64,000 nucleotides of DNA from Candidatus Nomurabacteria bacterium (GTDB taxonomy: Bacteria > Patescibacteriota > Minisyncoccia > Phycocordibacterales > UBA9973): NCBI GenBank assembly GCA_943354905.1, contig CALRDL010000001.1:29520-93519 (forward strand), read 5' to 3'. Shown piece by piece: positions 8,017-59,283 of the stretch (within the stretch, counting starts at the first letter, position 1; every line of letters begins with the position of its first letter). Made by a program: the position numbers and the translations under genes. The notes under the pieces are model-generated. The model did no database searches, had not been told where the DNA came from, and was given only the letters and a program-made list of their open reading frames with translations.

Positions 8017-8047
8017 CACGGGTGAGGGCTTTAGACTCTCACTGAGG
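8017..8047. repeat. REP-like palindrome overlapping the RAYT stop codon
   Basis: Sequence cacgggtgagggctttagactctcactgagg. Its reverse complement matches the CTCAGTGAGAG-TCTAAAGC-CTCTCACTGAG consensus. Confidence 0.6.
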
Positions 8048-8713
8048 CAATTCATCTGGCTCTTGCAATGAAGTACAGCCTCGTTCTTCTCGAATAATAG
8101 ATATTATTTCTTTGCAATGTTCTTTTAAATTATTTTTTCCTTGAAAAACTTCCAACATGCTCTGCCCTTCTTTTTTAGAAACAAAGTTAAAAAGTCCACT
8201 ATCATATTCCTTATCACTAGAAAATATAAAATGAAGCTTACTTTTCGGCATATCATGTACTAAATAATTTTGATTGACATACCCAAATGTTTTTCTAAAA
8301 TAATTATCGTTTTTAATTAATTTAGATTTAAATGTTCCTTGAAATAAAGAACCTGAACGCTTATTTTTTTCATTAAAGTAAGAAGTATACCCGCCTTGGA
8401 ATTTTTGCATAAATTTTGATATCCCACCATCTACTAATTGTTTTAAAAGAAAATGAAAATGATTTGGATTAATACAAAAAGCAACAATAGCAACAAGTGG
8501 TTCTTTCTTGATTCGCGGGTGAGGTTCTAAAGCCCTCTCTGAGATAGACTTGTAGTACATTTCTAAACTTCCTATCGCCTCAACTTGATTAAACTGTTTT
8601 ATACTTTCCTTAAAGCGTTCCAGATCTTTCAGATCACCGAAAATATCACGCTTATCTACACCTCTATTATATATATGATAATACTCCCCTGTTACGAGTG
8701 GCTCTTTTCTCAT
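8039..8713 (-). CDS. REP-associated tyrosine transposase (RAYT, IS200/IS605 Y1-transposase-like)
   Basis: YHIYNRGVDKRDIF is near the N-terminus. The HuH motif NPNHFHFLL is present, followed by the region GGYTSYFNEKNKRSGSLFQGTFKSKLIKNDNYF, which resembles the catalytic-Tyr segment of the RayT family. Confidence 0.7.
   Translation of the reverse strand: MRKEPLVTGEYYHIYNRGVDKRDIFGDLKDLERFKESIKQFNQVEAIGSLEMYYKSISERALEPHPRIKKEPLVAIVAFCINPNHFHFLLKQLVDGGISKFMQKFQGGYTSYFNEKNKRSGSLFQGTFKSKLIKNDNYFRKTFGYVNQNYLVHDMPKSKLHFIFSSDKEYDSGLFNFVSKKEGQSMLEVFQGKNNLKEHCKEIISIIREERGCTSLQEPDELPQ
8515..8552. repeat. REP-like copy inside the RAYT coding sequence
   Basis: Sequence cgcgggtgaggttctaaagccctctctgagata. 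Confidence 0.5.
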
Positions 8714-8727: not shown

Positions 8728-8758
8728 ACAATGAGAGTCTAAAGCTCTCACTGAGATA
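8728..8758. repeat. REP-like palindrome upstream of the RAYT start
   Basis: Sequence acaatgagagtctaaagctctcactgagata. Confidence 0.6.
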
Positions 8759-9333: not shown

Positions 9334-9364
9334 CTAGTGAGGGTCTAAAGCGCTCACTGAAATA
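9334..9364. repeat. REP-like palindrome
   Basis: Sequence ctagtgagggtctaaagcgctcactgaaata. Confidence 0.6.
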
Positions 9365-9367: not shown

Positions 9368-11977
9368 TTATTTCACTTCCCCAAAATTGTCTCCGGAGCC
9401 TGAGTGGACTATGAGCGGGATGTCGGTCTTGTATTCTAAATACGATCTCGAAAGAACCGTTTGCATAGCATTTTTAATTATCTTTTCTGCTTGGTCTAAA
9501 ACTCCTTCTTCGACTTCGTACACGAGTTCATCATGAATCTGCAAAACTAGATGCACTCTATCAAGTAGGCCAGCACTTTTCAAATCTTCATGAGAATATC
9601 TGATGGCTAGTTTAATAATGTCGGCGGTGGCTGTGCCCTGGATGGGTGCATTTGTGGCTGTACGCTCGGCCATGTTTTTCAAAAATGGAATCCTAGAATT
9701 TATATTTGGAAAATATCTCCGCCGTCCAAACAAAGTTTCCGTAAAACCATTTTTAGTGACATCAACTTTTACTTTTTCTAAATAATCTCGCACCCCAGAG
9801 AATTGATTGAAATAATTATCATAAAACTTTTGGGCTTCTTCTCTAGTTCCACCCAAATTTTTCCGCAGAGAGGAAACTCCCATACCATAAATAATTCCGA
9901 AGTTTATTACCTTAGCCTTGCGACGCATTTCGTGGTCAACTTTGTCGATAGGCACTCCAAAAACAAAAGACGCCACTCCAGAATGAATATCTTTCCCCTC
10001 TTTGAAAATCTCAGTCATTTTTTTATCTCCAGAAAGCATCGCTGCGACACGCAACTCTATCTGACTATAATCAAAAGTACAAAGCTTGTAACCCTTTTGG
10101 GCTATAAAACCTGCTCGAATCCTCTTGCCGAGCTCGGATTTTATTGGAAGATTTTGTAAGTTTGGATCGATAGAAGAAAACCTACCGGTGGTAGTAGCAT
10201 TTTGTAAAAATTTAGAATGAAGTCTATTATCTACTCCGACCATTTTTGGAATCACATCGATATATGTCGAAAGCAATTTTTGAAGTTCTCGATAAGAAAG
10301 TATTTCTGTAATAATCGGATTTTCTTCTTCAAGTTCTTCAAGAACTGAAACTTTAGTAGATAAATTTCCACTGGCTCCTTTTTTCTTGGACTTCATCCCC
10401 ATCTTCTCAAAGAGAACAACGCCTAATTGCTTCGGGGAATTAATGTTAAATTCCGTACCAGCCATTTCATATATTTTTTTGGTTAAAATATCTAGTTCAA
10501 TATGATATTCTTTTGAGAGTTTTTCAAAATATTTTTGATCGAGCATTATGCCGTGATCTTCCATCTCTTTGACTATAGGAATTATTGGATGCTCGATCTC
10601 TTCATAAACTTTTTCAAGTTTTTTTTCACTCAATTTCTTAAAAACATATTCGCGAGCTTTTTCGAAATCACTTGTATTGGCCTGCCCGACTGAATAGTCG
10701 TTCGGGCGGGAGAAATTTAAAATATCCTCCAAGCTTGGATTGGAGATATCAGAGTTCACTAGCCAGAGAGCTATGCTGGTTTCTTGAAGCTTAAGAGGAT
10801 CCGCAGGAAGACGCTCGGGAATAGCAGAATACGAATTTAGCAGAATTTTCTCGGGTCCTCGGGTCGCCCCTAGGATTCTCCGTCGGGGCTCAACCAGACC
10901 AGCTCGAAAATTCTCTAAATTCGTATTCTGCTGACTTGAAAAAAAACTTTTCAATCTTGAAAACAAAGACCTAAATTCAAAGAAATTAAATATTTGTTCA
11001 ATTTTTTTAAAATCTGCATTTTCCCAAAAAGTTTTTTCTGGAATTTTAAAATTGATCGGTGCATCTCTGCGTATTGTCGCTAAAGTTTTCGAAAAAAGTG
11101 CTTCTTCTTCGTTGTTTTTTAAAAGCTCAATCATCCGTGGACTAATACCCGCTTTTAAAAAATCTTCATCCCCGCCCGAACGACCGTCCGGTCGGGCGGG
11201 TTTTTTTAATTTTTTATAAATATCTTCGATGGTTCCAAATTTACTGATTAAAATTTCTGCAGTTTTTTCGCCTATGCCTTTGATGCCGATGATATTGTCT
11301 GACGGATCTCCGCGAAGTCCCTTGTAGTCTGGCAAAAAAACCGGTTTAAAATTAAAACGTTCTACGACTTTTTCTTCATCATACAAAATAGTGTCGTTAA
11401 TACCTTTTTTAAGAGTGTAGACTTGAACCTTTTTATCATCGATGAGTTGCATCGTATCCATATCTCCGGAAGCAATGATGATATTTATACCCCCTCCGCC
11501 CTTCGTCAAGCTCAGGGTACCTCCCCTATTTTTGGAGGGGACATAGGGGGAGGTCAAGTGGGGGCGCAATTGCGCCACTATAGTACCAAGCACATCATCC
11601 GCCTCGAAACCCGGTGCATCATAAATCGGAATATTAAAAGCTTCGAAGATTTGGCGAGAATTTTTTAGTTGCGTTATGAGAGCTTCATCGGTCTTGGCTC
11701 TCCCTTTTTTATATCCATCATAAGCCTCATGCCGAAAAGTTTTTTGTGGTAGATCATAACAAGCCACGATATAGTCTGGCTTCAAATCTACAATGATCTT
11801 CATCAACATTGTAGACAACCCATACAAAGCCCCAGTCGGCTCACCTTTAGAAGATAGAAAGTCGGGAAGGGCATGATAGGCTCGATGAATTATCGCGTGC
11901 GAATCCAAAAGGACTAAAGTTTTGGGCTGTTTACTATTTTGCTCATTTTCTTTAATTTCTTTAGTTTCTTTGGACAT
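9368..11977 (-). CDS. polA: DNA polymerase I (5'-3' exonuclease plus polymerase domains)
   Basis: 869 aa. The N-terminus LVLLDSHAIIHRAYHAL and the C-terminus ...RVHLVLQIHDELVYEV with YGMG and IIKLAI motifs fit PolA. It hosts three in-frame palindromic inserts. Confidence 0.9.
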   Translation of the reverse strand: MSKETKEIKENEQNSKQPKTLVLLDSHAIIHRAYHALPDFLSSKGEPTGALYGLSTMLMKIIVDLKPDYIVACYDLPQKTFRHEAYDGYKKGRAKTDEALITQLKNSRQIFEAFNIPIYDAPGFEADDVLGTIVAQLRPHLTSPYVPSKNRGGTLSLTKGGGGINIIIASGDMDTMQLIDDKKVQVYTLKKGINDTILYDEEKVVERFNFKPVFLPDYKGLRGDPSDNIIGIKGIGEKTAEILISKFGTIEDIYKKLKKPARPDGRSGGDEDFLKAGISPRMIELLKNNEEEALFSKTLATIRRDAPINFKIPEKTFWENADFKKIEQIFNFFEFRSLFSRLKSFFSSQQNTNLENFRAGLVEPRRRILGATRGPEKILLNSYSAIPERLPADPLKLQETSIALWLVNSDISNPSLEDILNFSRPNDYSVGQANTSDFEKAREYVFKKLSEKKLEKVYEEIEHPIIPIVKEMEDHGIMLDQKYFEKLSKEYHIELDILTKKIYEMAGTEFNINSPKQLGVVLFEKMGMKSKKKGASGNLSTKVSVLEELEEENPIITEILSYRELQKLLSTYIDVIPKMVGVDNRLHSKFLQNATTTGRFSSIDPNLQNLPIKSELGKRIRAGFIAQKGYKLCTFDYSQIELRVAAMLSGDKKMTEIFKEGKDIHSGVASFVFGVPIDKVDHEMRRKAKVINFGIIYGMGVSSLRKNLGGTREEAQKFYDNYFNQFSGVRDYLEKVKVDVTKNGFTETLFGRRRYFPNINSRIPFLKNMAERTATNAPIQGTATADIIKLAIRYSHEDLKSAGLLDRVHLVLQIHDELVYEVEEGVLDQAEKIIKNAMQTVLSRSYLEYKTDIPLIVHSGSGDNFGEVK
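10681..10710. repeat. Family A palindromic element, in frame in polA
   Basis: Sequence cctgcccgactgaatagtcgttcgggcggg. Confidence 0.6.
11171..11200. repeat. Family A palindromic element, in frame in polA
   Basis: Sequence cccgcccgaacgaccgtccggtcgggcggg, translated as KKPARPDGRSGGDE. Confidence 0.65.
11491..11577. repeat. Family B compound palindromic element, in frame in polA
   Basis: Sequence ccccctccgcccttcgtcaagctcagggtacctcccctatttttggaggggacatagggggaggtcaagtgggggcgcaattgcgcc, translated as ...PYVPSKNRGGTLSLTKGGGG... Confidence 0.65.
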
Positions 11978-14040: not shown

Positions 14041-15060
14041 ATGTCAAGTACTAAACCAAAGGAAACAAACAAAAAGACAGACGAAAGTCATTTAGACCAA
14101 ACTCTCCGTCCGAGAGCTTGGGATGAATATATTGGTCAAAAACACATCAAAGACAATCTAAAAATCCTTCTCGAAGCGGCTGAGGGTCGTGGACACATTC
14201 CTGAACATATTTTATTCTATGGACCTCCAGGTCTCGGCAAGACTACCTTGGCACACTTGATAGCCAAGGAAACCGGACGACAAATGAAAATCACTTCTGG
14301 TCCGGCTATTGAAAAAATCGGTGACCTGGCTTCGATACTGACCAACCTTTCTGTCGGAGATATTCTCTTCATCGACGAGATTCATAGATTAAATAAAATG
14401 GTGGAAGAGATTCTCTATCCAGCTATGGAGTCTGGAGTGCTCGACATCATCATAGGCAAAGGTCCTTCGGCACGGACAATCCAGCTTGACCTACCACCAT
14501 TTACACTGATCGCCGCGACGACGCGTGTAGCCATGGTATCTTCTCCCCTTCGTTCTCGTTTTTCGGGTGGAGTTTTTCGACTGGAGTTTTATTCCAACGA
14601 AGAGATTGCTCGCATAGTAGATAGATCTAGTAAACTTTTGGAAATAAGTTTTGAAAAAGATGCCCTAGAAGAAATAGCCAAGAGAAGCCGATTTACTCCG
14701 CGCACGGCAAATTATTTTTTAAAAAGAGTACGAGACTTTGCGCAAGTAAACCAAAAATCTAGCGTTAGGCAAGACCTAACGCAAAAGACAGTCAAAGATG
14801 CGCTAAATATGCTAGCCATAGATGAGATAGGACTGAATTCTTCAGATCGAAAATTTTTAGAAATACTTATTGAAAAATTTAATGGTGGACCAGTCGGACT
14901 CAAGACCATCGGCGCAGCTATGAGTGAAGAAGAAGCTACAGTGGAAGAAGTCATCGAGCCGTACCTGATCCAGCTCGGACTCCTCGAACGCACCGCTCGT
15001 GGACGGGTAGCAACAAAAAAAGCATATGAGCATCTGGGTTTTAATTTCCCCTCTCCTTAA
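14041..15060 (+). CDS. ruvB: Holliday junction branch migration ATPase RuvB
   Basis: GPPGLGKTTLAHLIA Walker A, sensor motifs, 339 aa. Confidence 0.95.
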   Translation: MSSTKPKETNKKTDESHLDQTLRPRAWDEYIGQKHIKDNLKILLEAAEGRGHIPEHILFYGPPGLGKTTLAHLIAKETGRQMKITSGPAIEKIGDLASILTNLSVGDILFIDEIHRLNKMVEEILYPAMESGVLDIIIGKGPSARTIQLDLPPFTLIAATTRVAMVSSPLRSRFSGGVFRLEFYSNEEIARIVDRSSKLLEISFEKDALEEIAKRSRFTPRTANYFLKRVRDFAQVNQKSSVRQDLTQKTVKDALNMLAIDEIGLNSSDRKFLEILIEKFNGGPVGLKTIGAAMSEEEATVEEVIEPYLIQLGLLERTARGRVATKKAYEHLGFNFPSP

Positions 15061-15136: not shown

Positions 15137-15652
15137 ATGCGAATTTTGGGAATCGATCCGGGTTTTGAACGACTTGGGATTGCTATATTAGAAAAGCCTA
15201 GCATAGGAGTTTCCTATGACTCCATAGGAAACTCCTATGCGAAACATAAAGAGAAAGTTATTTTTTCTACTTGCTTCAAAACTTCAGCTAAGTTGGAATT
15301 TTCAGAACGTTTGAAATTGATCGGTGAAGAAGTGAAAAAAGTAATTCAAGAATACAAACCAGATGTACTCTCCATCGAAACTTTATTTTTAAATACAAAT
15401 CAAAAGACAGTGATGCGGGTCGCCGAAGCACGGGGTGTATGTATTTATGAAGCCAAACTTGCAAATTTGCAAATCTTTGAGGCCACCCCACTCCAGATCA
15501 AGGTAGCCATCACTGGCTATGGACGATCTGACAAAAATCAAATAAATAAAATGGTACATATGCTCGTCGATATCGACAAAAAAACAAAATCAGACGACGA
15601 ACTAGATGCTATCGCTATCGCATTAACAGCTTTTGCACACCTAAAGTATTGA
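15137..15652 (+). CDS. ruvC: Crossover junction endodeoxyribonuclease RuvC, with an in-frame palindromic insert
   Basis: MRILGIDPGFERLGIAIL... and DAIAIALT motifs. Confidence 0.85.
   Translation: MRILGIDPGFERLGIAILEKPSIGVSYDSIGNSYAKHKEKVIFSTCFKTSAKLEFSERLKLIGEEVKKVIQEYKPDVLSIETLFLNTNQKTVMRVAEARGVCIYEAKLANLQIFEATPLQIKVAITGYGRSDKNQINKMVHMLVDIDKKTKSDDELDAIAIALTAFAHLKY
15201..15240. repeat. Family C perfect palindrome (CATAGGAGTTTCCTATG-N-CATAGGAAACTCCTATG), in frame in ruvC
   Basis: Sequence gcataggagtttcctatgactccataggaaactcctatgc, translated as SIGVSYDSIGNSYA. Confidence 0.75.
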
Positions 15653-24342: not shown

Positions 24343-24843
24343 ATGAATGATCAAGATATTCAAAATTTAATAAAAGAATTACTTGAAAAAATAAAAGTGA
24401 ATGTAGAAAGTATTTCTTTAGAAGAAAAAGACGGTTTAAATAAATGGTTTTCTATTGAAGTAAAAGAACCACATTTTTTTATTTCAAATGATGCTGAAGC
24501 TCTTTATGCACTCAATCATCTTGTGCGTAGGATGGTGGAAAAGAATCTCTCAGGAAATCCTCTCCAAGACTCGGAGAGAGGCGAAGGGGTGAGGCCAGAG
24601 GGTTCGATCTTAATCGATATAAATGGTTTTCAAAAAAAACGGGTAGAAAATACTCAAGCTATTGCTCATATGATGTCGGAGCGAGCTAGATATTTCAAGG
24701 CTAATGTCGAAGTCGACCCTATGTCAGCTTTTGAGCGAAGAATAGTCCATGAATTTTTATCTAATGCTACAGATCTAAAAACTGAATCTATGGGTTTTGG
24801 CCCATCTCGTCGGGTGGTTATAAAGTACGTTGGAACAATTTAG
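24343..24843 (+). CDS. jag: Jag/KhpB-like KH plus R3H RNA-binding protein
   Basis: C-terminal R3H motif FERRIVHEFL. Follows yidC. Confidence 0.65.
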   Translation: MNDQDIQNLIKELLEKIKVNVESISLEEKDGLNKWFSIEVKEPHFFISNDAEALYALNHLVRRMVEKNLSGNPLQDSERGEGVRPEGSILIDINGFQKKRVENTQAIAHMMSERARYFKANVEVDPMSAFERRIVHEFLSNATDLKTESMGFGPSRRVVIKYVGTI

Positions 24844-24887
24844 AATTACGAATGATCAATTACGATTTAAATTCGTAATCCGTAATT
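24844..24887. terminator. Palindrome built from ATTACGA/TCGTAAT heptads between convergent genes
   Basis: Sequence aattacgaatgatcaattacgatttaaattcgtaatccgtaatt. Confidence 0.4.
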
Positions 24888-24899
24888 TCTAATTTTTAA

Positions 24900-26330
24900 T
24901 TATTTAAGATCCAATTTCCACAAATAAGAATCTTTTTTGTTTACAAAAAGTAAATAATTTTCATTTTCATCTATTGCGAGTTTAATACCATCAATCTCTT
25001 CTCCTGCCAATATCGGATCTGCTAGTATGGTTGCATTCCCAGTTTTAATATTAATTTTCCATAATTCATCACTAAAAGATACTTCTCCTTGATACCAAGT
25101 CTCTGGATATTGACCAGATGGTATGACTTTTGGTACAGCACAATAGATATTATCCCCTATTTTATTCCAAACACACTTTTCTGGGAGAGTTCTAACTCCG
25201 AGCAAAATAGAATTTCTTGTGTCGGTCTGATATGCATTTAAAGCTAGGTCAGTACCACTAAAAAGGATTATTTTCCCATCAGGACCACTGAGAGTCGTGA
25301 GTCCATTTATGTCACCCAAAGCTCTGGTTGGATTTTTTTTGTTTGGATCCATTGTATACACGTGTCCTGTGGCTCTAGAATCAGCTTTAGTAGTCAAGGT
25401 GATGAGTTTATCATTTGGCCAGAGAGATAACCATTCAGTAAAATCAGAATCAAATATTTGAACTTTTTTATTGTCTACTAAGTTTAAAATCGTACCTATT
25501 ATATTTTCTCCAGAAGTATTTCCGTTTGTGAATAGATAAAAAGCTTTTAAAGTATCAGGTGAAATACTTATATCTTGCACATTGTCTGGTAAGAATGTTC
25601 CTTTTATTTCTTTATCCCCTGTTTCTGTTTCACTTACTATTTCTTTGGGTAAATTACCAACAAAAGTTGATATGGTGTCACCATATATTTTTAGATAACG
25701 CAAAATGACTGTTTGTCCATGATTGCCAAAATACGCTTCGTATACTTTCGGTATTGTTGGTAAAGAAAATTTTCGTTCAGAGATTTTGTCTAGAAAAGTT
25801 TGATAAATCGAACCATCTGATCGAGCTACGTATCGGACAGCTTCTGTAAATTCTGTTGGTTTTGGAGTTGGAGGCATTGGAGGAGTTAGTGAAGCTGGTG
25901 TTTTCTTTTTTTCTGTAGTCGTATTTTCTGGAGGTGCTGGAGGAGTCGCGGTTTTTCCCTCTCCTTTGGGGAGGGTTGGGGAGGGGTTATTTTGATCTAG
26001 GGTTAATTCTATTATTGGTATCTCTTTAAATCTTTCCTTAGAAAAAATTCCATAACCAGCTATCGGCATAGTGGAAATTTTTCTTAATTTTGGAATTGGA
26101 CTATCTGGTATAATTACCTCGCCATCTATATTTATTGGTGGAAGGTCTTTATCAGGATTTGAAGGAGGTGTATTATCTTTTCTAAATGGATTAAATCTTG
26201 AAAGAAAATTTGTGCCACCACTGTCAGGAACCCCAGATGTGTCCCCTCTCGGTTGCATATACAAGAACAAAACGACTAGGGCTATCACTAGACTCAAGAT
26301 TATTATTAAAAGTATAAAATTTCTTTTTGA
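24900..26330 (-). CDS. Membrane-anchored hypothetical protein with a Pro/Thr-rich linker and a C-terminal repeat-like domain
   Basis: Probable start at MSKRNFILLIIILSLVIALVVLF (signal anchor). The ORF table extends it to 26435 through an alternative upstream start. Confidence 0.4.
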   Translation of the reverse strand, partial: SKRNFILLIIILSLVIALVVLFLYMQPRGDTSGVPDSGGTNFLSRFNPFRKDNTPPSNPDKDLPPINIDGEVIIPDSPIPKLRKISTMPIAGYGIFSKERFKEIPIIELTLDQNNPSPTLPKGEGKTATPPAPPENTTTEKKKTPASLTPPMPPTPKPTEFTEAVRYVARSDGSIYQTFLDKISERKFSLPTIPKVYEAYFGNHGQTVILRYLKIYGDTISTFVGNLPKEIVSETETGDKEIKGTFLPDNVQDISISPDTLKAFYLFTNGNTSGENIIGTILNLVDNKKVQIFDSDFTEWLSLWPNDKLITLTTKADSRATGHVYTMDPNKKNPTRALGDINGLTTLSGPDGKIILFSGTDLALNAYQTDTRNSILLGVRTLPEKCVWNKIGDNIYCAVPKVIPSGQYPETWYQGEVSFSDELWKINIKTGNATILADPILAGEEIDGIKLAIDENENYLLFVNKKDSYLWKLDLK

Positions 26331-30515: not shown

Positions 30516-31172
30516 CTACTCCATCTGTATCTTCCCCTCTACCTCGCCGGGATTGAAAACTTTATAAAAAACTTCTACGATTTCTTCACTACCCAATTGA
30601 GCTGACTTTATCCCACATCTACTCAAACCTTGGCGAATAACCCCCACTCTTTGTTCTAGCTGTGATCTTTTTTCTTCAAAATCTTCTTGCTTTTCCACTC
30701 TTGCTTCTTCTTTATTTTTTCCACTAAATATACCAGATATTTTTGCAAATATTCCAGAATCTGATTTTAATATGGTGTCCGTGTAAGGTACAACTACAAA
30801 AAAGTTCTTTGTCATTATGCTGACTGTTTCAGTGAAATTCCTGATAAAGTCTATGTATTCTTTGGTTTGTAGTTTGAGTAAAGACTCACTTTGTAGTTTC
30901 ATTCGTTCTTCCAAAGTAAGTAGATATGGTCTAATGTCTAACTTTCTGGACTGGACGGATATTTGGATTGGGAAATCAAGAGTATTCAAGAAATCTTGGA
31001 ATTGGATTATGGTAGCCTTTTGTTCATCACTTGATTTCAAAGATAAATTCACAGAAGTTGCCAATACTATCCCTCGGAGCTCACCATTTTTGAGTATGAT
31101 AATACCATCACGGACTTCCTTGATCGGTACAAACTCTTGAGTTGCTTTTGCGTTTAAGGCCATATAAATCAA
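30516..31172 (-). CDS. Hypothetical protein immediately upstream of the VirB4-like gene (type IV secretion-associated by context)
   Basis: 218 aa. Only a 15-nt gap separates it from the VirB4-like ORF. Confidence 0.4.
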   Translation of the reverse strand: MIYMALNAKATQEFVPIKEVRDGIIILKNGELRGIVLATSVNLSLKSSDEQKATIIQFQDFLNTLDFPIQISVQSRKLDIRPYLLTLEERMKLQSESLLKLQTKEYIDFIRNFTETVSIMTKNFFVVVPYTDTILKSDSGIFAKISGIFSGKNKEEARVEKQEDFEEKRSQLEQRVGVIRQGLSRCGIKSAQLGSEEIVEVFYKVFNPGEVEGKIQME

Positions 31173-31177
31173 TTTAA

Positions 31178-31243
31178 AATTACGAATTACGAATTACGAA
31201 TTTTTGTTCAAATATTTTATTATTAATTGTTAATTCGTAATTG
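31178..31243. repeat. Heptad array (ATTACGA)3 followed by an inverted TCGTAAT copy
   Basis: aattacgaattacgaattacgaattttt ... taattcgtaattg. Confidence 0.6.
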
Positions 31244-31250
31244 TTCATTC

Positions 31251-31682
31251 TTAATTATTGTTGTGTTTGTTTAAGTCTAGTATATCCAGACTCCAAGCCA
31301 AATCTCGCAATCTGTTTCCCCCGAATTTTACTTTATTTTCTAACATTTGTTTACTTTTTTCTTCCTCATTCGTAATTCGTAATTGATCATTTTTAATTAA
31401 ATTCTCTCTCCTTTTCCAAATATAAAGTTTATCGCGTAAAAAATAATAGAATCCAGATTCTATCATATTTATGAAGGGCTTGTTATTTGGTCGGTAAAAA
31501 ATAAGTGAGGCAGAAAATCCTCCGATCAAAAGTATTGGTATTGCCCCTAGAGTGAGTCCAAGCAATTTATAGAGAACAAAACACAAGCCCCCTCCTCCAG
31601 CTAGATATATGAATTCTCTAAAGGTGAATGGCCCAAATATTTTGTCTTCTATATCTAAAAATTGTGGAACTTTAAATTGCAT
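31251..31682 (-). CDS. Small two-transmembrane protein, possibly VirB3-like
   Basis: 143 aa with FGPFTFREFIYLAGGGGLCFVLYKLLGL...LLIGGFSASLIFY. Contains an in-frame heptad repeat (NDQLRITNEE). Confidence 0.35.
   Translation of the reverse strand: MQFKVPQFLDIEDKIFGPFTFREFIYLAGGGGLCFVLYKLLGLTLGAIPILLIGGFSASLIFYRPNNKPFINMIESGFYYFLRDKLYIWKRRENLIKNDQLRITNEEEKSKQMLENKVKFGGNRLRDLAWSLDILDLNKHNNN
31367..31398. repeat. TTCGTAA heptad repeat inside a CDS
   Basis: Sequence cattcgtaattcgtaattgatcatttttaatt. Confidence 0.55.
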
Positions 31683-31687
31683 TGAGT

Positions 31688-31720
31688 CAATTACGAATTA
31701 ACAATTACGAATTTCGAATT
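31688..31720. repeat. ATTACGA heptad repeats (intergenic)
   Basis: Sequence caattacgaattaacaattacgaatttcgaatt. Confidence 0.55.
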
Positions 31721-31771
31721 ATTAACTCATAAATTATAAATTATCAATCGACTATTTTATTATAACATTAA

Positions 31772-32134
31772 TTACTCATTTGCCATTCTTGATTTTACGG
31801 TTTTCTGTATTTTTCCTATTATTTTTAGTATTTCTTCGCAGTCATTAAAAACAGGAGAAAGTTCTTCTTGAGTCATGTATTTCGCTTCTCTTAATAGAGA
31901 AAGCCAATATTTTGTTTCTCGAGCTTCTTTGTAGGCTATGGATAATTTTGAGATGAAGTCTTTTTTCGATTGACCACCTAGTGCTTCTTCTATGTTTGCA
32001 CCGATTGATGTTCCACTTCTTAAAAGCTGTTTAGATAAAATAAATTCTTTTTTTATTCCAATTAAATATTTATATAATTCAATAATTCTTACTGCAAATT
32101 TATAGCTTTTTTGTTGTATTATGTTTTCTTTCAA
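31772..32134 (-). CDS. Four-helix-bundle protein (23S rRNA intervening-sequence protein family)
   Basis: QLLRSGTSIGANIEEA...AYKEARETKYWLSLL. Apparent TTG start lying within the heptad repeat. Confidence 0.55.
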   Translation of the reverse strand: MKENIIQQKSYKFAVRIIELYKYLIGIKKEFILSKQLLRSGTSIGANIEEALGGQSKKDFISKLSIAYKEARETKYWLSLLREAKYMTQEELSPVFNDCEEILKIIGKIQKTVKSRMANE

Positions 32135-32165
32135 TTCGTAATTCGTAATTATTAATTCGTAATTT
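32132..32165. repeat. TTCGTAA heptad repeats
   Basis: Sequence caattcgtaattcgtaattattaattcgtaattt. Confidence 0.55.
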
Positions 32166-32175
32166 AGAATCTTTC

Positions 32176-33211: not shown

Positions 33212-35806
33212 CTAATGATGCGCACCTCCGCCTCCGTGAGAAGTATCTTTTTTGACTTCTGTTGCGCTAGATAGATCTACATTAATTTTAACACCCTTTA
33301 AGGACTCAGTAATCAAACTACCAATATCTTTTAAAGCATTTCCTTCACCTTTTCCATAGTTTACATTTAGTTGTTTAAATCCAGCACGCAAACCTATCGC
33401 AAGCCCTGCAGTCATCATTGTAGCAACTTTAGCCAATGTTTTGCTATTTGTTTTAGCTACCAGTTCCGCAATATTTCGTATATCGTAATTTCCACCTGTT
33501 GAAGCTGCAGTTACTCTTTCTCTTATACCTACCTTTTCTTTTGCTTCGTTTGCTATGTGACCAAACCTATTTTTAGCTATTACTTCAGACAATTGTCTTA
33601 ATCTTTCATTCCATTTATCGTTTAATGTTTCTAAAACTATAGATTCTCCTTGTTTAGTCAAGTCAAGAGTTATAGGGTCTACCATACCTGGCATAGCCCT
33701 TACACTTGTTTCAACAGCTGTACGTTTATTTGTTCTAAACTGGCTCTCAGTTTCCATTGGTATTCCTGTTCTTGGGTCAATCAGTACCCTACCTTTTTCA
33801 TCAGAACCTCTCTTTACATCTTTTTCTATTTGAGGACGATTTTCTTTAGCAAAGGTTTCTAGCATTTTACTATCTTGCATACCACTGAGTCTATCATTGC
33901 TTACTCCTTCTGCTCCTACTTTTTTCTTTAGTTCATCCCACTCAGTTGTAGCATGAGCAGTTTCCTCTCTTTTTAATTGAGCGGCATTTATTCTTCCACC
34001 TATTCGGTCTTTTAAATTGGTAGGAGCAGTAATTGTTGATGTATAAGTTTCTAATTTTGGTTTAGCGCCTCGTCCAGCTCTTGGAGTACTCTTCCAGCTA
34101 TTCAAGTCTTTGCTGAAGTTTCCAGATGCGGTACGATATTCTTTACCATATTTTAAGGCCTCAGTACTTCTTGAAAAACCAGCTACAGTAGATCCGATAC
34201 CTTTTCTCATGCCTGCTGCAGCTAAAAGACTAGCACCACCTAGGGCTAATCCTCCAACTACTCCAACTGCTTTCATCGCACCCATAGCCACTTCTGCAAA
34301 TTTTCCTCCTCCCTTTTTTGCGAAATCAGTTGCTTTCATTAGAAGTATTAAAATGAAAAGTGCTGGAATTATGATAAACAAAACTGTTTCCATAGTGGAA
34401 GCTTCGGCAGGATTTCGCATCAATCCACTAAATATATTTGCATTTATCAATCTAAATATAAAATATAAAAAGAACATAAATATCGGGGCCATAAAGGATA
34501 CCTCGATCAATCTTTTTAACCAAGAATCCCATCCTACATACTCTATTCCAGCTAATTTAGGCAAGGATAAAGACATAAACGCAAAAGGAGAAAATATTAT
34601 TAAAAGCCAGAGTTCTATGAGTCTTCCGAGGAAACTTATCCCAGCAATAAAAAATGCGTATGTGGCAAAAAGCATTATCGCTCCAGAGATTACGATCATA
34701 CCAAACAGTAATGCTATCGGTACTTCCTTACTCGGTATAAAATAATATACAAGACCCCCCACCGCACCAATCACCGCACCAGGTACCGCACCAATCCCAG
34801 CAAATGGTGAACCAGCAGCTGCACCAGCAGCTGCACCAGTCCCAGCACTAGCTAACACACCAGCTGTAGTTGCCTCAGCTATCGTATCTGTTCTTTTTTT
34901 TGCATTCTCAAAGAATTCGTTCGACAATAATTTCCCCGGATTAAAAGCATTTACCATACCACCCGATATATCTTTTTCTGTTCCGGTATTTGTGGCTGGT
35001 AAATATGCTTTCTTTACTCCATCTACGGTCGTCTCGGTGTTTATTTTATTATAGAAAATTAGGGCAAGAACATTTGAAGTGTCTATGACAATTTTCGTAA
35101 AGAACATTGAAAAGTTGATGAGTAATGCCATGATTATAACTTGAACCACCATCTTTTTTGCGTGGTCACTTATACCAAGTATAGTTTGAATACCTACATA
35201 TAATAAGATAAGAATAAAAAATATATTGGAAAGATCTCGGACTACGGCCCAAGCTGTGGGTATAAAAGTAGAACCACTAATCATTTTACCACTTAAGGTT
35301 AATGCCACAATAGCATTAAAAAACATCGCCGAATAAGTGAGCAAAAAAGATGGTAAGACATTCAGAAGAAAATAAGATATTTTGACTAAACATCCTGCAA
35401 TATTTGGAATAGGAAATATACAATCTGGTAGGTTGTTTCCTATACCAGTGTCGTCTGGGGGTTTGTCTGCCACTTTCTCACCCCCTCCTTCAATTGCATT
35501 TCCAATAGTACCAGGTGTCAAAAACCTTACAGTGGACGAACCAGGTATGTTTCCTGAGGTACATTCACCTCGCTTTCTTTGATCTTCCATGGGGTCTCCC
35601 CTGCTATTGGTCCAAGCACATCTTCCCATTTGATTAGGATCTGCTGGTGCTGGTGTCTGTGCCTGTGTTTTAGAAAAATACCCAACCCCCCCAGCTAAAA
35701 CCAGAATCAAGAGTAGATATGGAATTATCCTAGTAGTAGAAAATAGCCACATTTTTTTGGATGGTATTTTCACTACGGGGATTGTTTTTCTAAAATTTGA
35801 ATTCAT
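33212..35806 (-). CDS. VirB6/TrbL-like polytopic membrane protein of the type IV secretion system
   Basis: 864 aa. Signal anchor, at least eight predicted transmembrane helices, a Gly/Ala-rich segment and a long charged C-terminal domain. Assigned by architecture and context, not by a motif. Confidence 0.5.
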   Translation of the reverse strand: MNSNFRKTIPVVKIPSKKMWLFSTTRIIPYLLLILVLAGGVGYFSKTQAQTPAPADPNQMGRCAWTNSRGDPMEDQRKRGECTSGNIPGSSTVRFLTPGTIGNAIEGGGEKVADKPPDDTGIGNNLPDCIFPIPNIAGCLVKISYFLLNVLPSFLLTYSAMFFNAIVALTLSGKMISGSTFIPTAWAVVRDLSNIFFILILLYVGIQTILGISDHAKKMVVQVIIMALLINFSMFFTKIVIDTSNVLALIFYNKINTETTVDGVKKAYLPATNTGTEKDISGGMVNAFNPGKLLSNEFFENAKKRTDTIAEATTAGVLASAGTGAAAGAAAGSPFAGIGAVPGAVIGAVGGLVYYFIPSKEVPIALLFGMIVISGAIMLFATYAFFIAGISFLGRLIELWLLIIFSPFAFMSLSLPKLAGIEYVGWDSWLKRLIEVSFMAPIFMFFLYFIFRLINANIFSGLMRNPAEASTMETVLFIIIPALFILILLMKATDFAKKGGGKFAEVAMGAMKAVGVVGGLALGGASLLAAAGMRKGIGSTVAGFSRSTEALKYGKEYRTASGNFSKDLNSWKSTPRAGRGAKPKLETYTSTITAPTNLKDRIGGRINAAQLKREETAHATTEWDELKKKVGAEGVSNDRLSGMQDSKMLETFAKENRPQIEKDVKRGSDEKGRVLIDPRTGIPMETESQFRTNKRTAVETSVRAMPGMVDPITLDLTKQGESIVLETLNDKWNERLRQLSEVIAKNRFGHIANEAKEKVGIRERVTAASTGGNYDIRNIAELVAKTNSKTLAKVATMMTAGLAIGLRAGFKQLNVNYGKGEGNALKDIGSLITESLKGVKINVDLSSATEVKKDTSHGGGGAHH

Positions 35807-35839
35807 TATGTTTTTTTAACTTGACATTTCTTTTCCATT

Positions 35840-35888: not shown

Positions 35889-36425
35889 CTAAGGAGCCCT
35901 TTTCTTTTTTAGCTCGATCTTTTCTTTTATATGATTGTTTTCTAAATAATCAAAATATTCGGATCCTAATTTTTGATATAAAGAAGAAGCAAATTTTCTA
36001 TCAGGAAATAATATTTTTTCAAATTTATTTTCTTCAATCAAAAAATCCACCAACATTTTATAATCTCCATCACCTGAAACCAAAATAATCTTTCCAAAAT
36101 CCTCTTTTTTATACAAACGCTTCATTGCAGAAAAAATAATATCAGAATCAACATTTCCCTTTTTTAGTCCAACCATAGCTTCACTATGTTGTTTGAATAC
36201 TATAATAAAACCAGCTTTTTGTATTTTTTCATATAAATCTTGGTATTTTTTATCTGTATATCCGAGATGGTAGTATGCTCTATCAACATTATACTTTTTT
36301 TCTAAATAAATTCTAAAACGACCCAGTTCAATTTTCCACGGATCAATATCTTTTTTTGCTGTATTCATATACAGATTCTGTCCATCTACAAAGGCAATAT
36401 TTTTATTTTCTTTTTCAATCATCAT
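35889..36425 (-). CDS. NYN-domain (LabA/PIN-like) ribonuclease family protein
   Basis: IAFVDGQNLY...DVDSDIIFSAM...ILVSGDGDYKMLV, the acidic residues typical of NYN domains. Confidence 0.6.
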   Translation of the reverse strand: MMIEKENKNIAFVDGQNLYMNTAKKDIDPWKIELGRFRIYLEKKYNVDRAYYHLGYTDKKYQDLYEKIQKAGFIIVFKQHSEAMVGLKKGNVDSDIIFSAMKRLYKKEDFGKIILVSGDGDYKMLVDFLIEENKFEKILFPDRKFASSLYQKLGSEYFDYLENNHIKEKIELKKKRAP

Positions 36426-36429: not shown

Positions 36430-36572
36430 TATTATATCACAACCTCATCCCAAAAATCCCAGCCAAAACCAGAATCAAGAGTAGATATGGGATTATCCTA
36501 GTAGTAGAAAATGACCACATTTTTTTTATTGATGTTTTCACTACGGGACTAGTTTTTCTAAAATTATTTTGC
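36430..36572 (-). repeat. Copy 2 of the VirB6-like 5' leader module (45-codon pseudo-N-terminus plus upstream region)
   Basis: Encodes MQNNFRKTSPVVKTSIKKMWSFSTTRIIPYLLLILVLAGIFGMRL, to be compared with the VirB6-like start MNSNFRKTIPVVKIPSKKMWLFSTTRIIPYLLLILVLAGG. Confidence 0.7.
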
Positions 36573-36665
36573 ATTTTATCTTTTTTACCTCATTTTTTGA
36601 ATACTTATTTTATTTTAACATTATATTGACAAAAAATCTTCTTAATATATACTTTATTAGTCATT

Positions 36666-36699: not shown

Positions 36700-37305
36700 C
36701 TAGACATCACTCTTGATTTGCATCTTCCAGTCATTTATATCAATAAAAAATACTTGATTTCTTTTTTCTGCTACTAAATTTCGCAACTTTAAAGAAAGTC
36801 TCGAAGTAAAGTATCTAGGAGCAGTTCTTATTTTCTTGGCACTTGAAATTATATAAACTTTTACACCTTTCTCGACTACATTGCGAGCCAGATATTCAAA
36901 ATCTCCATCGCCAGTAAAAAACAAATACCCCACATTTTTTTCTATTTGATTTATTACATCAACAGCAAATTCTACATCACAATTTGATTTCCACTTTACT
37001 CCCCTACTTACTTTATGAGTTATTCCTGTGTTGCAATTAGGGCATAAAATTTTAATAATCTGATCTTGATTTTTGTAAATAAAATATGGTTTTGCGTGTA
37101 CGGTATATCCTAACTTGGACAATTCTTCGTATTCTGAAGCTTTAACATTATCACCATTTTGAATACCAGAATAAAAAAATATCTTTTCACAGTTCCATTT
37201 TTCTCTTAAATATTTAAACATTTTTTTCCAATCAATCACAAAACCAAGAAGCTGATTAGTAGTGCTTTCTGTGTTCTGTACATCAATAAATGCGTATCGT
37301 TTCAT
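36700..37305 (-). CDS. NYN-domain protein with an inserted zinc ribbon
   Basis: YAFIDVQN...CPNCNTG...WKSNCDVEFAVDVI...FFTGDGDFEYL. Confidence 0.55.
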   Translation of the reverse strand: MKRYAFIDVQNTESTTNQLLGFVIDWKKMFKYLREKWNCEKIFFYSGIQNGDNVKASEYEELSKLGYTVHAKPYFIYKNQDQIIKILCPNCNTGITHKVSRGVKWKSNCDVEFAVDVINQIEKNVGYLFFTGDGDFEYLARNVVEKGVKVYIISSAKKIRTAPRYFTSRLSLKLRNLVAEKRNQVFFIDINDWKMQIKSDV

Positions 37306-37344
37306 AATTTTAATTTTATATCTATACGTTCTCCCTTTATATAA

Positions 37345-37500
37345 ATCCCCCAGCTAAAACTAGAAATAAGAGTAGATATGGGATTATTCTAGTAGAAGAA
37401 AATAACCATATTTTTTTTATTGGTGTTTTCACTACGGGGATTGTTTTGCTAAAATTTGAATTCATTTATTTTCTTCGTTTTATTATAGCATTAGTTATAT
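37345..37500 (-). repeat. Copy 3 of the VirB6-like leader module with a consensus -10 box
   Basis: Encodes MNSNFSKTIPVVKTPIKKIWLFSSTRIIPYLLLFLVLAGGFI. Preceded on the minus strand by gctataataaaacgaagaaaataaATG. Confidence 0.7.
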
Positions 37501-37649: not shown

Positions 37650-38126
37650 CTAATCTTCTTCCGGGTTGCCATCATGAAATATTCTAGTCATTGTTTCTCT
37701 ATTCATTCCCCAAAATGGAATAATACTCCAGAAAATTCTTTTACCATCTTCTATTTGTTTTATAATAATTTTAACCCTATTTCTTTTAATTATCGCTATA
37801 AATTCATAGTACGTGACATTTTTTAGGATTTTGTCCAGCCTACTATGAACTTTTATGTGTTCAAATTTTTTCGTTTCCCATATTCCTTGTAAGCTAGATG
37901 ATATTTTTATGACTTCGGGTGCTAAATTTATGAGTTTGAAACGCATATATTGATCTTGTTCCAATCGTGATTTTCCTCGATATTTATATTTTAAATGTTC
38001 AAGCCCTTGAGCATTAAATGCTATTTTTTCCTTAAAATATGGACAATAAACTTCCGTAATGGATTTATAAAAGGATTCTCCATTTATTTTAATTTTTTCA
38101 AATTCTTCATTACTAAATTTTAGCAT
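37650..38126 (-). CDS. Hypothetical protein (158 aa) preceded by a truncated leader copy
   Basis: No family recognised. Confidence 0.35.
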   Translation of the reverse strand: MLKFSNEEFEKIKINGESFYKSITEVYCPYFKEKIAFNAQGLEHLKYKYRGKSRLEQDQYMRFKLINLAPEVIKISSSLQGIWETKKFEHIKVHSRLDKILKNVTYYEFIAIIKRNRVKIIIKQIEDGKRIFWSIIPFWGMNRETMTRIFHDGNPEED

Positions 38127-38215
38127 ATTTTTTTTATTGGTATTTTCATTACGAGACTAGTTTTTCTAAATTCTAAGCTCATTTATTTTCTTCGTTTTAT
38201 TATAGCATTAGTTTT
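38127..38215 (-). repeat. Copy 4 (truncated) of the VirB6-like leader module
   Basis: Encodes MSLEFRKTSLVMKIPIKK. Shares the promoter gctataataaaacgaagaaaataaATG. Confidence 0.6.
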
Positions 38216-38218: not shown

Positions 38219-39376
38219 CTAACTTCCAAGAAAGTCTGTGTAATTCTCTACTGTAATAACCTTAAAATTGATCTGGAGATTCTTGTTGGTCTCGATAAAT
38301 ACTTTCGGAGTTTTTTTCTTCTGCATATTATTAAGAGTAAATTCATAAACATCAGCATTTTGATTCCACTTTTCAATATAATCAATCTCTTTACCCTCGA
38401 TATTTCTCCAGAAGAACGTTTGATACAATTTTCCATTGTACGCGTTACTTTTAAGTTTCTCTATGATGGCAAAGTTTTCAAACAAGTTGCCGAGATCTCT
38501 GCGCATTAAACCATTTTTATTAATGTTTGTTTCTGTAAAATCATTGATTATGGCATTACGAATACCGAGGTCGTAGAAATACAGCTTGTTCTTTTTACGT
38601 ATTTCGGTGCGGAGATTGTTGTTATAACTTTTCAGTCTAAATACAACAAATGATTGTTCTAATAGATAAATATATCTTTGTATTGTCTTACTACTCGTTC
38701 CCAATTCTTTACTTATTTTATTTATACTAATTTCATTACCTATTTGATAAGCGAGTGTGCGGAGTAAATTTAGCAATATTTCTGGTTTTTTTAGATTTTC
38801 AAATTTAAGAATATCTTTGAGTAGAAATGATTCAGCTAGATTTTTAACTTTGGCTATTTTCTCTTCGATGGTGCCCTGCAGGATGACTTCTGGATAGCTA
38901 CCAAAACGGAGTATGTAATCGAGATGTGTTGTGGGGTTGAAGTATTCAGAATTCCTGATTTCATAGTCGGTGAGTGGGTACATATTAAGTAAAATATTTC
39001 TACCCATTAACGGCTCTCCGATTTGACCAGCAAGTTCGAAAGAGGATGACCCTGTTACTACAATTTTGAGGTTTGGGTAGGCATCGATAATGATTTTGAG
39101 ATTTATTCCGATATTTTTTATATTCTGTGCTTCATCGATAAACAAGAGGTCGAGGTCCTCGACATGTTCTTTTAGTTTTTCTAGTCTTTGAGATGAAAAT
39201 ATTTCTTGGGTAGTTATACTATCACCAGCATAGACTCTATACTTGTCTTTGAATTGCTCAAGGAAACTATTTATTATAGTTGTTTTACCTACCTGTCGTG
39301 GACCATAGATGATCAAAACCTTACCGTTTTGGACAAAGCTTCCGATGTCTATTTGTCTTTTAACTAAATTCTTCAC
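38219..39376 (-). CDS. AAA-family ATPase (COG1373-like, ATPase domain plus DUF4143-type C-terminus)
   Basis: Walker A GPRQVGKTT, Walker B LLFIDEAQ, and a C-terminal winged-helix-like region. Confidence 0.65.
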   Translation of the reverse strand: MKNLVKRQIDIGSFVQNGKVLIIYGPRQVGKTTIINSFLEQFKDKYRVYAGDSITTQEIFSSQRLEKLKEHVEDLDLLFIDEAQNIKNIGINLKIIIDAYPNLKIVVTGSSSFELAGQIGEPLMGRNILLNMYPLTDYEIRNSEYFNPTTHLDYILRFGSYPEVILQGTIEEKIAKVKNLAESFLLKDILKFENLKKPEILLNLLRTLAYQIGNEISINKISKELGTSSKTIQRYIYLLEQSFVVFRLKSYNNNLRTEIRKKNKLYFYDLGIRNAIINDFTETNINKNGLMRRDLGNLFENFAIIEKLKSNAYNGKLYQTFFWRNIEGKEIDYIEKWNQNADVYEFTLNNMQKKKTPKVFIETNKNLQINFKVITVENYTDFLGS

Positions 39377-46258: not shown

Positions 46259-47122
46259 TCACCTTAAAGTTTTTACAAATTCTATCCAATCTTTGAGAGT
46301 TAATTCTTCCGCTCTTTTGTTCCCTAATAACACATAGGAGTTTCCTATGCCATAGGAAACTCCTATGTGTTTGAGGTTGCCAGACAGTTTTTTGCGCTTG
46401 TGAGCGAAGCCAGCTTTGACTATTTCCCAAAATTTTTGCTCAAATTCCAGACTGTTCAAAGCTTTATTTTGAACTTCGCTCCGTCCTCCCCCTTGCGAAG
46501 GGGGAGGTGTCCTGAGTTCATCGAAGGGCGGAGGGGGTAAAGTAATGAAATTTTTTCTTGAAATATTATTTATACTGATGACTGCCGAGTCTACCTTTGG
46601 TGCAGGAGAGAAATATCTGGCTGGAACTTTCATAATAAGTTTCGGATCACCATAAGCTTTTACAGAAATAGAAAGAATACTTTCCTTGCCATCGCGAGCC
46701 ACTATTCTTTTTGCCACTTCATTTTGGACCATCAGCACCATGCTAGTAGGCTGATGTTTGTCTGTTAAAAACTTTTTCAAAATCGCTCCAGTTATATTAT
46801 ACGGAATGTTGGCGATGATTTTATATTGCGTTAGGTCTTGCCTAACGCAATCAAAGTCGAGAATATCTTCATGTACTAGTACGAGAGAACGAGACTCTAT
46901 TTCTTTTGCAAATTTATCTTTCAAAAATTCAAAAAGATCATTATCTTTTTCTACGGCTATAACTTTTGCTCCTGTTTGTAAAAGTTTCTCAGTGAGTGCG
47001 CCCTTACCAGGACCTATTTCCAAGATTACATCATCTTTTTTTATCTCTCCTGCTTTGACTATATTATTCAAGGCTGGAACCGATTTTAAGAAATTTTGTC
47101 CCAATGATTTTTTTATTTTCAT
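46259..47122 (-). CDS. rsmA: 16S rRNA (adenine1518/1519-N6)-dimethyltransferase, with two in-frame palindromic inserts near the C-terminus
   Basis: LGQNFLKS and LEIGPGKGALT motifs. Confidence 0.85.
   Translation of the reverse strand: MKIKKSLGQNFLKSVPALNNIVKAGEIKKDDVILEIGPGKGALTEKLLQTGAKVIAVEKDNDLFEFLKDKFAKEIESRSLVLVHEDILDFDCVRQDLTQYKIIANIPYNITGAILKKFLTDKHQPTSMVLMVQNEVAKRIVARDGKESILSISVKAYGDPKLIMKVPARYFSPAPKVDSAVISINNISRKNFITLPPPPFDELRTPPPSQGGGRSEVQNKALNSLEFEQKFWEIVKAGFAHKRKKLSGNLKHIGVSYGIGNSYVLLGNKRAEELTLKDWIEFVKTLR
46332..46368. repeat. Family C palindrome, in frame in rsmA
   Basis: Sequence acataggagtttcctatgccataggaaactcctatgt, translated as HIGVSYGIGNSYV. Confidence 0.7.
46482..46539. 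repeat. Family B palindromic element, in frame in rsmA
   Basis: Sequence cgtcctcccccttgcgaagggggaggtgtcctgagttcatcgaagggcggagggggta. Confidence 0.7.
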
Positions 47123-59096: not shown

Positions 59097-59170
59097 CGGG
59101 CTGTAGTATATCGGTTGTACAAGTGCTTTGGGAGCATTTAGGCTGGGTTCGACTCCCAGCAGCCCGACCA
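59097..59170 (+). tRNA. tRNA-Pro (anticodon UGG), CCA encoded
   Basis: Cloverleaf: acceptor CGGGCTG/CAGCCCG, anticodon loop UUUGGGA, T-loop TTCGACT. Confidence 0.75.
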
Positions 59171-59193
59171 GAAAGTTGTTCATAATTAAATTT

Positions 59194-59264
59194 GCGGGAT
59201 TAGTTTATCGGTAAAATAACAGTTTTCCAAACTGTGGTGAAGGGTTCGACTCCCTTATCCCGCA
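59194..59264 (+). tRNA. tRNA-Gly (anticodon UCC)
   Basis: Acceptor GCGGGAT/ATCCCGC, anticodon stem ACAGT/ACTGT, loop UUUCCAA, T-arm AAGGG-TTCGACT-CCCTT. Confidence 0.65.
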
Positions 59265-59283
59265 CAGAACTAATGTGAGTATA

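Follow-up and report, generated by a model that had tools for sequence, protein, structure and literature searches.

The occurrence of a DNA palindrome in frame within ruvC of a Candidatus Nomurabacteria bacterium raises the question of what such an element is, how it came to be placed inside a coding sequence, and why the same unit recurs in rsmA and in a gene for a cysteine-rich (Cys-rich) protein on the same contig (CALRDL010000001.1, assembly GCA_943354905.1). The region analysed, referred to here as the window, is the 64,000-nt stretch from position 29,520 to 93,519 of that contig, and coordinates are counted from its first nucleotide. The palindrome, designated Family C, is very probably a repeat of the repetitive extragenic palindrome (REP) or REP-doublet hairpin (REPIN) type, i.e. 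the flanking repeat of an IS200-like Y1/HUH transposase resembling the REP-associated tyrosine transposases (RAYTs), present in Nomurabacteria and other Paceibacteria, with the copies in the window representing survivors. This assignment to the REP/REPIN-RAYT arrangement, or ‘REPtron’ (PMC3733652, PMC3686654, bioRxiv 10.1101/119735), was made because the anatomy of the repeat, its association with a Y1/HUH transposase gene, its covariation with that gene and the distribution of its copies match the published arrangement. Neither the hairpin nature of each palindrome arm nor the link to a RAYT-like transposase formed part of the first-pass annotation of the window.

Three copies of Family C were located in the window, all translated in the IGVSY/IGNSY frame. 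The first is an inverted, REPIN-like doublet at 15201-15240 on the forward strand, within ruvC (15137-15652, forward strand, 171 amino acids (aa), Pfam RuvC 118 bits), which reads GCATAGGAGTTTCCTATG-ACTC-CATAGGAAACTCCTATGC and encodes S-IGVSY-DS-IGNSY-A. It had been described as a perfect 40-bp palindrome, of which the position and sequence stand, but perfect complementarity is confined to the two 18-bp arms (15201-15218 and 15223-15240), the 4-nt spacer ACTC (15219-15222) not being palindromic. The second is an inverted doublet on the reverse strand within rsmA (ksgA; 46259-47122, reverse strand, 287 aa, Pfam RrnaAD 181 bits over residues 1-187 only), encoding H-IGVSY-G-IGNSY-V; it is present where previously placed (46332-46368) but is slightly longer, occupying 46329-46371 with 21-bp arms (46329-46349 and 46351-46371) around one base. 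The third is a single unit at 63094-63112 on the reverse strand (core 63095-63111), with an 8-bp stem (ACATAGGA / TCCTATGT) and encoding N-IGNSY-V, so that the half copy reported at 63084-63101 exists but had been placed 11 nt away from its true position. Its host, the Cys-rich protein gene (62547-64000, reverse strand), has its 5' end beyond the window and no assigned function; the protein has 3007 homologues at E <= 0.001, typically of 550-600 aa (approximately 590 aa), and no significant family in Pfam or NCBIfam. The closest homologues of RuvC and RsmA belong to Candidatus Nomurabacteria, Paceibacterota and Minisyncoccia, i.e. to the Patescibacteria (candidate phyla radiation). A predicted tryptic peptide contains IGVSYDSIGNSYAK.

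The basic unit of Family C is a hairpin of 17-21 nt with the consensus TACATAGGAGTTTCCTATGTA, which in its tolerated frame is translated as YIGVSYV. Its 17-nt core, CATAGGAGTTTCCTATG, comprises a 7-bp stem and a 3-nt loop (CATAGGA-GTT-TCCTATG), and the doublets are nested palindromes in which each arm folds as its own hairpin. Folded as single-stranded DNA, the ruvC doublet forms an 18-bp hairpin of -20 kcal/mol (z = -9.5) and the rsmA doublet reaches -20.2 kcal/mol (z = -11.4), with the single unit of the Cys-rich gene at -5.7 kcal/mol. Allowing up to three mismatches, the core was matched 11 times, counting both strands, at five unit positions in the window, compared with 0.16 expected, and none of 100 shuffles equalled this count, hence the palindromes are not a product of chance; by our own arithmetic from base composition, an exact 17-mer would be expected approximately 1e-5 times per window. 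The flanks of many Family C copies differ between copies, yet remain perfectly complementary. Because the 17-mer is almost identical to its reverse complement, the three reading frames are shared by both strands: ATA-GGA-xxx-TCC-TAT, giving (Y)IG(V/N)SY(V); CAT-AGG-..., giving HR(S/K)(F/L)LC (HRSFLC or HRKLLC); and a third frame that contains TAG.

A scan for the exact 17-mer in one genome per species across 185,579 species returned 110 stretches, approximately 70 of them from about 30 Patescibacteria genomes and often several per genome, which upholds the earlier suggestion of a dispersed repeat family. These Patescibacteria genomes contained roughly 100 exact units, a single metagenome-assembled genome carrying up to 9 or more, compared with about 2 chance copies estimated for all Patescibacteria genomes scanned under an assumed total size. 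The other approximately 40 stretches were singletons in unrelated phyla, and about 70 chance matches were estimated, again by our own arithmetic, for the whole collection. Across 80 elements in Patescibacteria loci, 60 were single units and 20 were inverted doublets with spacers mostly of 1, 2 or 4 nt. It had been proposed that half copies mark excision footprints; this finds no support, single units being the commonest form and including those flanking the transposase gene described below. Non-coding elements were in the majority (54, with 26 inside open reading frames (ORFs) of at least 100 aa) and lay mostly at gene 3' ends, with 17 between convergent, 20 between co-directional and 4 between divergent genes, and in 16 of them the TAG of the core served as the stop codon of a neighbouring gene. 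Hosts of coding copies included LeuRS, ArgRS, PurL (two sites), GAPDH, a GT2 glycosyltransferase, DapF, MnmA, a class-V aminotransferase and an aminopeptidase. The IGxSY frame was used at approximately 12 independent coding sites, with orthologous sites grouped, and the HRxxLC frame in three ORFs only, all short and doubtful, while doublets with a 2-nt spacer read IGVSYV-HRKLLC. The claim that the element is always translated as IGVSY..IGNSY is thus accurate for the window and does not extend to its relatives, where coding copies are in the minority and some doublets within ORFs are read otherwise. As a separate observation, two Clostridium genomes (L049/L091, metagenome-assembled, and L067/L095) carry two 17-mers each, centred in long hairpins with A/T-rich flanks, e.g. 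AGCTTTTTATAT-core-ATATAAAAAAAG in L067; these are a repeat family of their own or else a type of terminator that shares the core.

The association with a transposase was apparent at locus L010, where two Family C units bracket an ORF of 210 aa. Counterparts of this ORF (about 210 aa, 75-83% identity) adjoin the 17-mer in 14 loci and are flanked by it on both sides. The hairpin, single or as an inverted doublet, precedes the transposase ATG by 30-60 nt and recurs beyond the gene at a distance of 1-90 nt (mostly 1-40 nt), with the TAG stop codon of the transposase often inside the downstream hairpin. The upstream hairpin is followed by a TATACT-like hexamer. The protein (P0391 type) matched Pfam Y1_Tnp (‘Transposase IS200 like’) at 30.3 bits, above the cut-off of 23, and carries an HUH motif (NHFH) and a conserved YIHLNP tyrosine motif; the NCBIfam IS200 model gave no match to it. 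Thousands of close homologues occur in candidate-phyla-radiation metagenomes, annotated as ‘transposase’ and once as ‘REP element-mobilizing transposase RayT’. In 9 of the 14 loci the transposase gene has dnaB-recR on one side and rplU on the other, and in another 4 it is near transketolase genes, the names dnaB, recR and rplU having been assigned by reading the neighbours' sequences; the neighbourhoods were read in 8-kb tiles, from which copy number per genome was only partly counted. The conserved order dnaB-recR-gene-rplU indicates a vertically inherited, single-copy gene and not a hopping insertion sequence.

Different transposase clades were accompanied by different repeats. A homologue at locus L041 with 53% identity is flanked by a different palindrome, CCCCATAGGTCTTGCCTCTGGGG, and the window itself contains a RAYT-like Y1/HUH transposase gene that is not cognate to Family C (8039-8713, reverse strand), which is 33-40% identical (tblastn) to the Family C-associated transposase and scored 38.9 bits against Pfam Y1_Tnp (cut-off 23) and 35.5 bits against NCBIfam REP_Tyr_transpos (cut-off 80). 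This gene has a palindrome of its own, GTGAGAGTCTAAAGCYCTCAC, placed on both sides in inverted orientation (8022-8042 and 8731-8751), with a third copy approximately 600 bp away at 9337-9357. The repeat therefore covaries with the transposase clade, which is the REPtron signature.

An alternative explanation for these same data is that the 17-mer is a regulatory or terminator palindrome, acting as an operator or RNA stem-loop, with its adjacency to the transposase reflecting regulation of that gene and the coding copies being by-products. The clustering of non-coding copies at gene 3' ends, the position of the hairpin upstream of the transposase start and ahead of the hexamer, and the strict conservation of the sequence across species would all be accommodated by such a role. 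However, the hairpin is found on both sides of the transposase gene, the transposase clades have different flanking palindromes, and the copies in ruvC, rsmA, PurL and tRNA-synthetase genes are hard to read as operators or terminators. Further, an Rfam scan of the window returned only five tRNAs, with no family at the three Family C sites. The regulatory explanation is consequently regarded as quite unlikely. A check for a plasmid origin gave no match.

If Family C is instead a REP-type repeat, a mechanism can be proposed by analogy with the HUH Y1 transposases IS608 TnpA and E. coli RAYT, in which the transposase would recognise the hairpin in single-stranded DNA, cleave and rejoin it, and so spread or maintain copies. 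The distribution of copies suggests that placement would be blind to reading frame and that selection would then filter the outcome. The frame containing TAG would survive only at gene 3' ends, often becoming the stop codon, the HR(S/K)(F/L)LC frame would rarely be tolerated, and the IGxSY frame, which is the same on both strands, could be tolerated in housekeeping proteins, RuvC and RsmA among them, where it falls in a surface loop; all three window copies would then be survivors of this frame selection. Frame-blind placement followed by selection on the three possible translations is the simplest reading, under which one hairpin meets three fates: at gene ends it supplies a stop codon, as an IGxSY loop it is tolerated, and as HRxxLC it is tolerated only rarely.

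In an alignment of 30 RuvC orthologues, the sequences are collinear save for one loop after LEK, at which the shortest orthologues read LEKNGGKECVIF without any insert and IGVSY..IGNSY is confined to the three closest relatives (82-85% identity). In further orthologues this loop carries unrelated recurrent peptides, among them KPFDxAQG, SAQGYG, TAFVKNSG and SAVGRTKSAFGE in Paceibacteria, which suggests that several palindrome families use the RuvC loop as a common landing site. An AlphaFold2 model of RuvC had a mean predicted local distance difference test score (pLDDT) of 86.6 overall with a confident core, but pLDDT < 50 at the insert (residues 24-35), which lies between strands 12-19 and 39-48. 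The ruvC doublet is a real, tolerated loop insertion, which lengthens the protein relative to insert-free orthologues and falls in a low-confidence loop. The possibility that the DNA hairpin encodes a protein beta-hairpin was rejected, given that the insert is low-confidence or disordered, as was an assembly artefact, given that the identical ruvC insert is present in independent Logan, ENA and NCBI assemblies.

The ruvC copies also permitted a comparison of synonymous positions, using genes picked by protein similarity and not through the 17-mer. In the arms of ruvC, 10 of 10 codons were identical across three lineages, the figure for the remainder of the gene being 43 of 117 same-residue codons (Fisher p = 9e-5), and third-position identity between the three lineages was 49-65%. 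The doublet spacer varied (ACTC vs CTGT), and the base pair just outside the core and arms covaried (G..C vs A..T). The identity of synonymous sites within the arms suggests a constraint acting at the DNA level.

The copies in rsmA and the Cys-rich gene differ in character from that in ruvC. The doublet was found in none of 24 other RsmA orthologues, and its site corresponds to a native segment of approximately 12 aa, relative to which the window version is only about 4 aa longer. At the same site, one orthologue has only one unit, whose loop differs (TACATAGGA-CGG-TCCTATGTA), in another the unit has decayed (TACATAGGAGTTGCCTGTGTA), and in the closest relative (P0123, L117 around 40-810) a segment of the usual length contains another perfect palindrome, ATGTCAAAG-AGACA-CTTTGACAT. 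The rsmA slot is thus occupied by different hairpins in different lineages. Both ruvC and rsmA are still open, with their conserved cores kept. For the Cys-rich protein, compared with 150 representative homologues, DN-IGNSY-VYGDFFP matches the native DKKGRVYKYGEFFP column for column, hence the single copy adds no residues, and the G and Y of IGNSY sit on a conserved G-x-x-Y; with native columns occupied and no change of length, the specific proposal that this half copy is an excision footprint is likewise unsupported. The exact 17-mer occurs at the same codon in homologues 42-68% identical, two of them from one metagenome-assembled genome, and likewise at the same codon in PurL orthologues 73-80% identical, although both sets were chosen through the 17-mer and are therefore biased and suggestive only.

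These alignments bear directly on whether IGVSY/IGNSY could be a native protein motif, with the identity at DNA level a coincidence of codon usage. Two observations lean towards this explanation, namely the conserved G-x-x-Y of the Cys-rich protein and the copies in GAPDH (L023 6141-6157; L041 4395-4411), in which the 17-mer encodes DIIGNSYAS, of the usual length. This peptide looks similar to the native GAPDH motif, D-[FIY]-x-G-[ND]-x-x-S-S, and the GAPDH copy may be a coincidence or a conversion instead of an insertion. Beyond the closest relatives, however, RuvC and RsmA orthologues are without the motif, so that the explanation is refuted for these two genes, and the refuting condition named in the first-pass annotation, IGVSYxxIGNSY as a native conserved motif of RuvC/RsmA orthologues in unrelated bacteria, does not hold. 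It also leaves unexplained an exact 17-mer that is expected only approximately 1e-5 times per window, that was seen about 100 times in Patescibacteria against an estimate of about 2, and that is abundant in non-coding DNA and flanks a transposase gene. As a general account, a native motif is extremely improbable.

When compared with the REP/REPIN-RAYT systems of Proteobacteria (E. coli, Pseudomonas, Stenotrophomonas), Family C shares a short palindromic unit that forms inverted doublets and thereby longer hairpins, copies flanking a single-copy, vertically inherited Y1/HUH transposase gene, different repeats for different transposase clades, and non-coding copies mainly downstream of genes, between convergent or co-directional ORFs, with occasional intragenic copies, notably in DNA repair genes. 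The non-coding pattern agrees with the published distribution of REPs, which are mainly extragenic and downstream of genes, and intragenic REPs have been described before, including dimers that code for 20-30 aa, with many located in genes for replication and repair (PMC3733652). Family C differs in the proportion of elements inside ORFs of at least 100 aa (26/80, or a third), in its perfect stem with a 3-nt loop, in the size of its protein (approximately 210 aa) and in its host phylum, the Patescibacteria.

Several further observations weigh against the assignment. REPs are defined with a 5' GT(A/G)G tetranucleotide (PMC3686654), and the GTAG/GTGG tag is absent 5' of the Family C stem, the consensus being TA-CATAGGAGTTTCCTATG-TA with ATAG contained in the stem itself. 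Copy number is low, at a few to approximately 10 exact copies per genome and not hundreds, which most resembles the low-copy RAYT groups 1 and 4 described by Bertels et al., and one 598-kb contig has no exact copies apart from those on either side of the transposase gene. The protein scored 36.3 bits against NCBIfam REP_Tyr_transpos (REP-associated tyrosine transposase), which is under the cut-off of 80 and is still its best NCBIfam match. Sequence and profile searches of solved structures returned nothing meaningful for the transposase, and its AlphaFold2 model, from a 15-sequence alignment, had a mean pLDDT of 43.5, too poor for fold comparison. The cognate transposase and the dnaB-recR-rplU locus are both absent from the 64,000-nt window, and no transposition event was seen, such as a site filled in one strain and empty in a close one. 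Finally, the rsmA and Cys-rich copies are unlike simple insertions (net gain of about 4 aa and zero length change, respectively), and replacement of residues without a change of length is not explained by known HUH transposition. Overall, Family C works like a REP/REPIN-RAYT system and has most of its defining features, the GTAG tag and the curated protein cut-off being those on which it fails.

The replacement of native residues allows two accounts, of which insertion followed by compensating deletion is the conservative one and templated conversion the more novel. In its full form, the latter would hold that the coding copies are not insertions at all, and that a templated process, such as short-patch gene conversion from one copy to another or template switching at quasi-palindromes, writes the core into native coding sequence or keeps it there. 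This would suit the unchanged length of the Cys-rich protein, the small net gain in rsmA together with its lineage-specific palindromes in one slot, the exact 17-mer at the same site in 42-68% identical homologues including two paralogues in one metagenome-assembled genome, the perfectly conserved synonymous sites of the ruvC arms, and flanks that vary between copies but stay complementary. However, template switching alone cannot make the same 17-mer at approximately 100 unrelated loci, ruvC shows a real length gain relative to insert-free orthologues, the comparison among the 42-68% identical homologues is biased by the selection of their loci through the exact 17-mer, and insertion with compensating deletion over long times fits the same data with no new mechanism. 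Templated writing as a replacement for insertion is accordingly viewed as very unlikely. A related idea, that the hairpins are not merely tolerated and that the 17-mer is written into, or kept in, native coding segments by a process at the level of DNA, was considered because of the absence of length change, the recurrence at the same site at about 45% identity including two paralogues, and the invariant synonymous positions; it is put forward tentatively, as an unlikely addition to the REP-type reading. If the 17-mer were so written in or kept, this would point either to a sequence-specific role in the host for the RAYT-hairpin pair inside genes, or to templated conversion beyond known HUH transposition.

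Rickettsia palindromic elements (RPEs) are approximately 100-150 bp in size and encode 30-50 aa. Family C elements are 17-43 bp, adding 5-14 aa or none, and are unrelated to RPEs in sequence and host; in addition, RPEs have no associated transposase gene, whereas Family C has a transposase partner in relatives. The two are alike in comprising in-frame palindromes in housekeeping genes of a small genome, with the encoded peptide at a tolerated surface position and the host gene not destroyed (PMC3733652). With IS200/IS605 elements, in which TnpA is a Y1 transposase and the hairpins are subterminal, Family C shares a Y1_Tnp gene bracketed by hairpins in a unit of about 0.7 kb, the size of IS200, but the gene with its hairpins is not multi-copy and keeps a conserved position (9 of 14 loci), and the hairpins are dispersed alone. 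Identity with IS200/IS605 was rejected on the grounds that the whole element is neither repeated nor mobile, with one gene copy per locus set. A miniature inverted-repeat transposable element with terminal inverted repeats and target-site duplication was also rejected, as the whole element is hairpin with no internal core and there is no direct duplication in the aligned flanks.

Searches of the literature for REP/RAYT systems in Patescibacteria or the candidate phyla radiation yielded no relevant publication. What is new here is the host phylum, a repeat without GTAG, a divergent RAYT-like protein, the three-frame outcome and the conservation of synonymous sites. Read as a REP-type repeat, Family C would bring into the candidate phyla radiation, with its tiny and gene-dense genomes, a system whose study has been almost wholly confined to Proteobacteria, and would account for unusual loop peptides in housekeeping proteins of these metagenome-assembled genomes. 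The decoration of RuvC and RsmA loops by several palindrome families also matters for annotation, alignment and structure prediction.

Other palindromes and repeats occur in the window. Family B comprises G/C-rich palindromes (CCTCCCCCTT..AAGGGGGAGG) at 627-651, 11488-11526, 46485-46539 and 60528-60552, the third of which lies in rsmA approximately 120 bp from the Family C doublet, in agreement with the earlier report that this gene carries both families in close proximity; Family B in rsmA encodes LPPPPFDELRTPPPSQGGGRSEVQ, an insert missing from several orthologues and variable in others. A further palindrome, GCGTTAGGCAAGACCTAACGC, is present at 14762-14794 (ORF 14041-15060) and at 46816-46848 in rsmA, where it encodes CVRQDLT, with the related peptides IARQDLT and VVKQDLT at this site in several RsmA orthologues. 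ORF 9368-11977 contains a G/C-rich palindromic pair, CCTGCCCGAC...GTCGGGCGGG, at 10681-10710 and 11171-11200, which is probably another in-frame palindrome family. In ORF 47312-49462 (716 aa) there is a 46-nt inverted repeat with 98% complementarity (48241-48286 vs 49113-49158) and two further inverted pairs, the repeat regions being 48188-48321 and 49089-49224. Intergenic, AT-rich runs of the heptamer AATTACG/CGTAATT, in both orientations, are located at 24835-24910, 31156-31413, 31687-31725 and 32123-32170. Four copies of a 90-150 nt repeat (35681-35837, 36449-36605, 37340-37496 and 38124-38213), spaced at 717-891 bp, are positioned at the margins of, or in the gaps between, ORFs 33212-35806, 35889-36425, 36700-37305, 37650-38126 and 38219-39376, and may reflect tandem paralogues. 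Four of the five tRNA genes are clustered at 59097-60240, with the other at 1844-1916.

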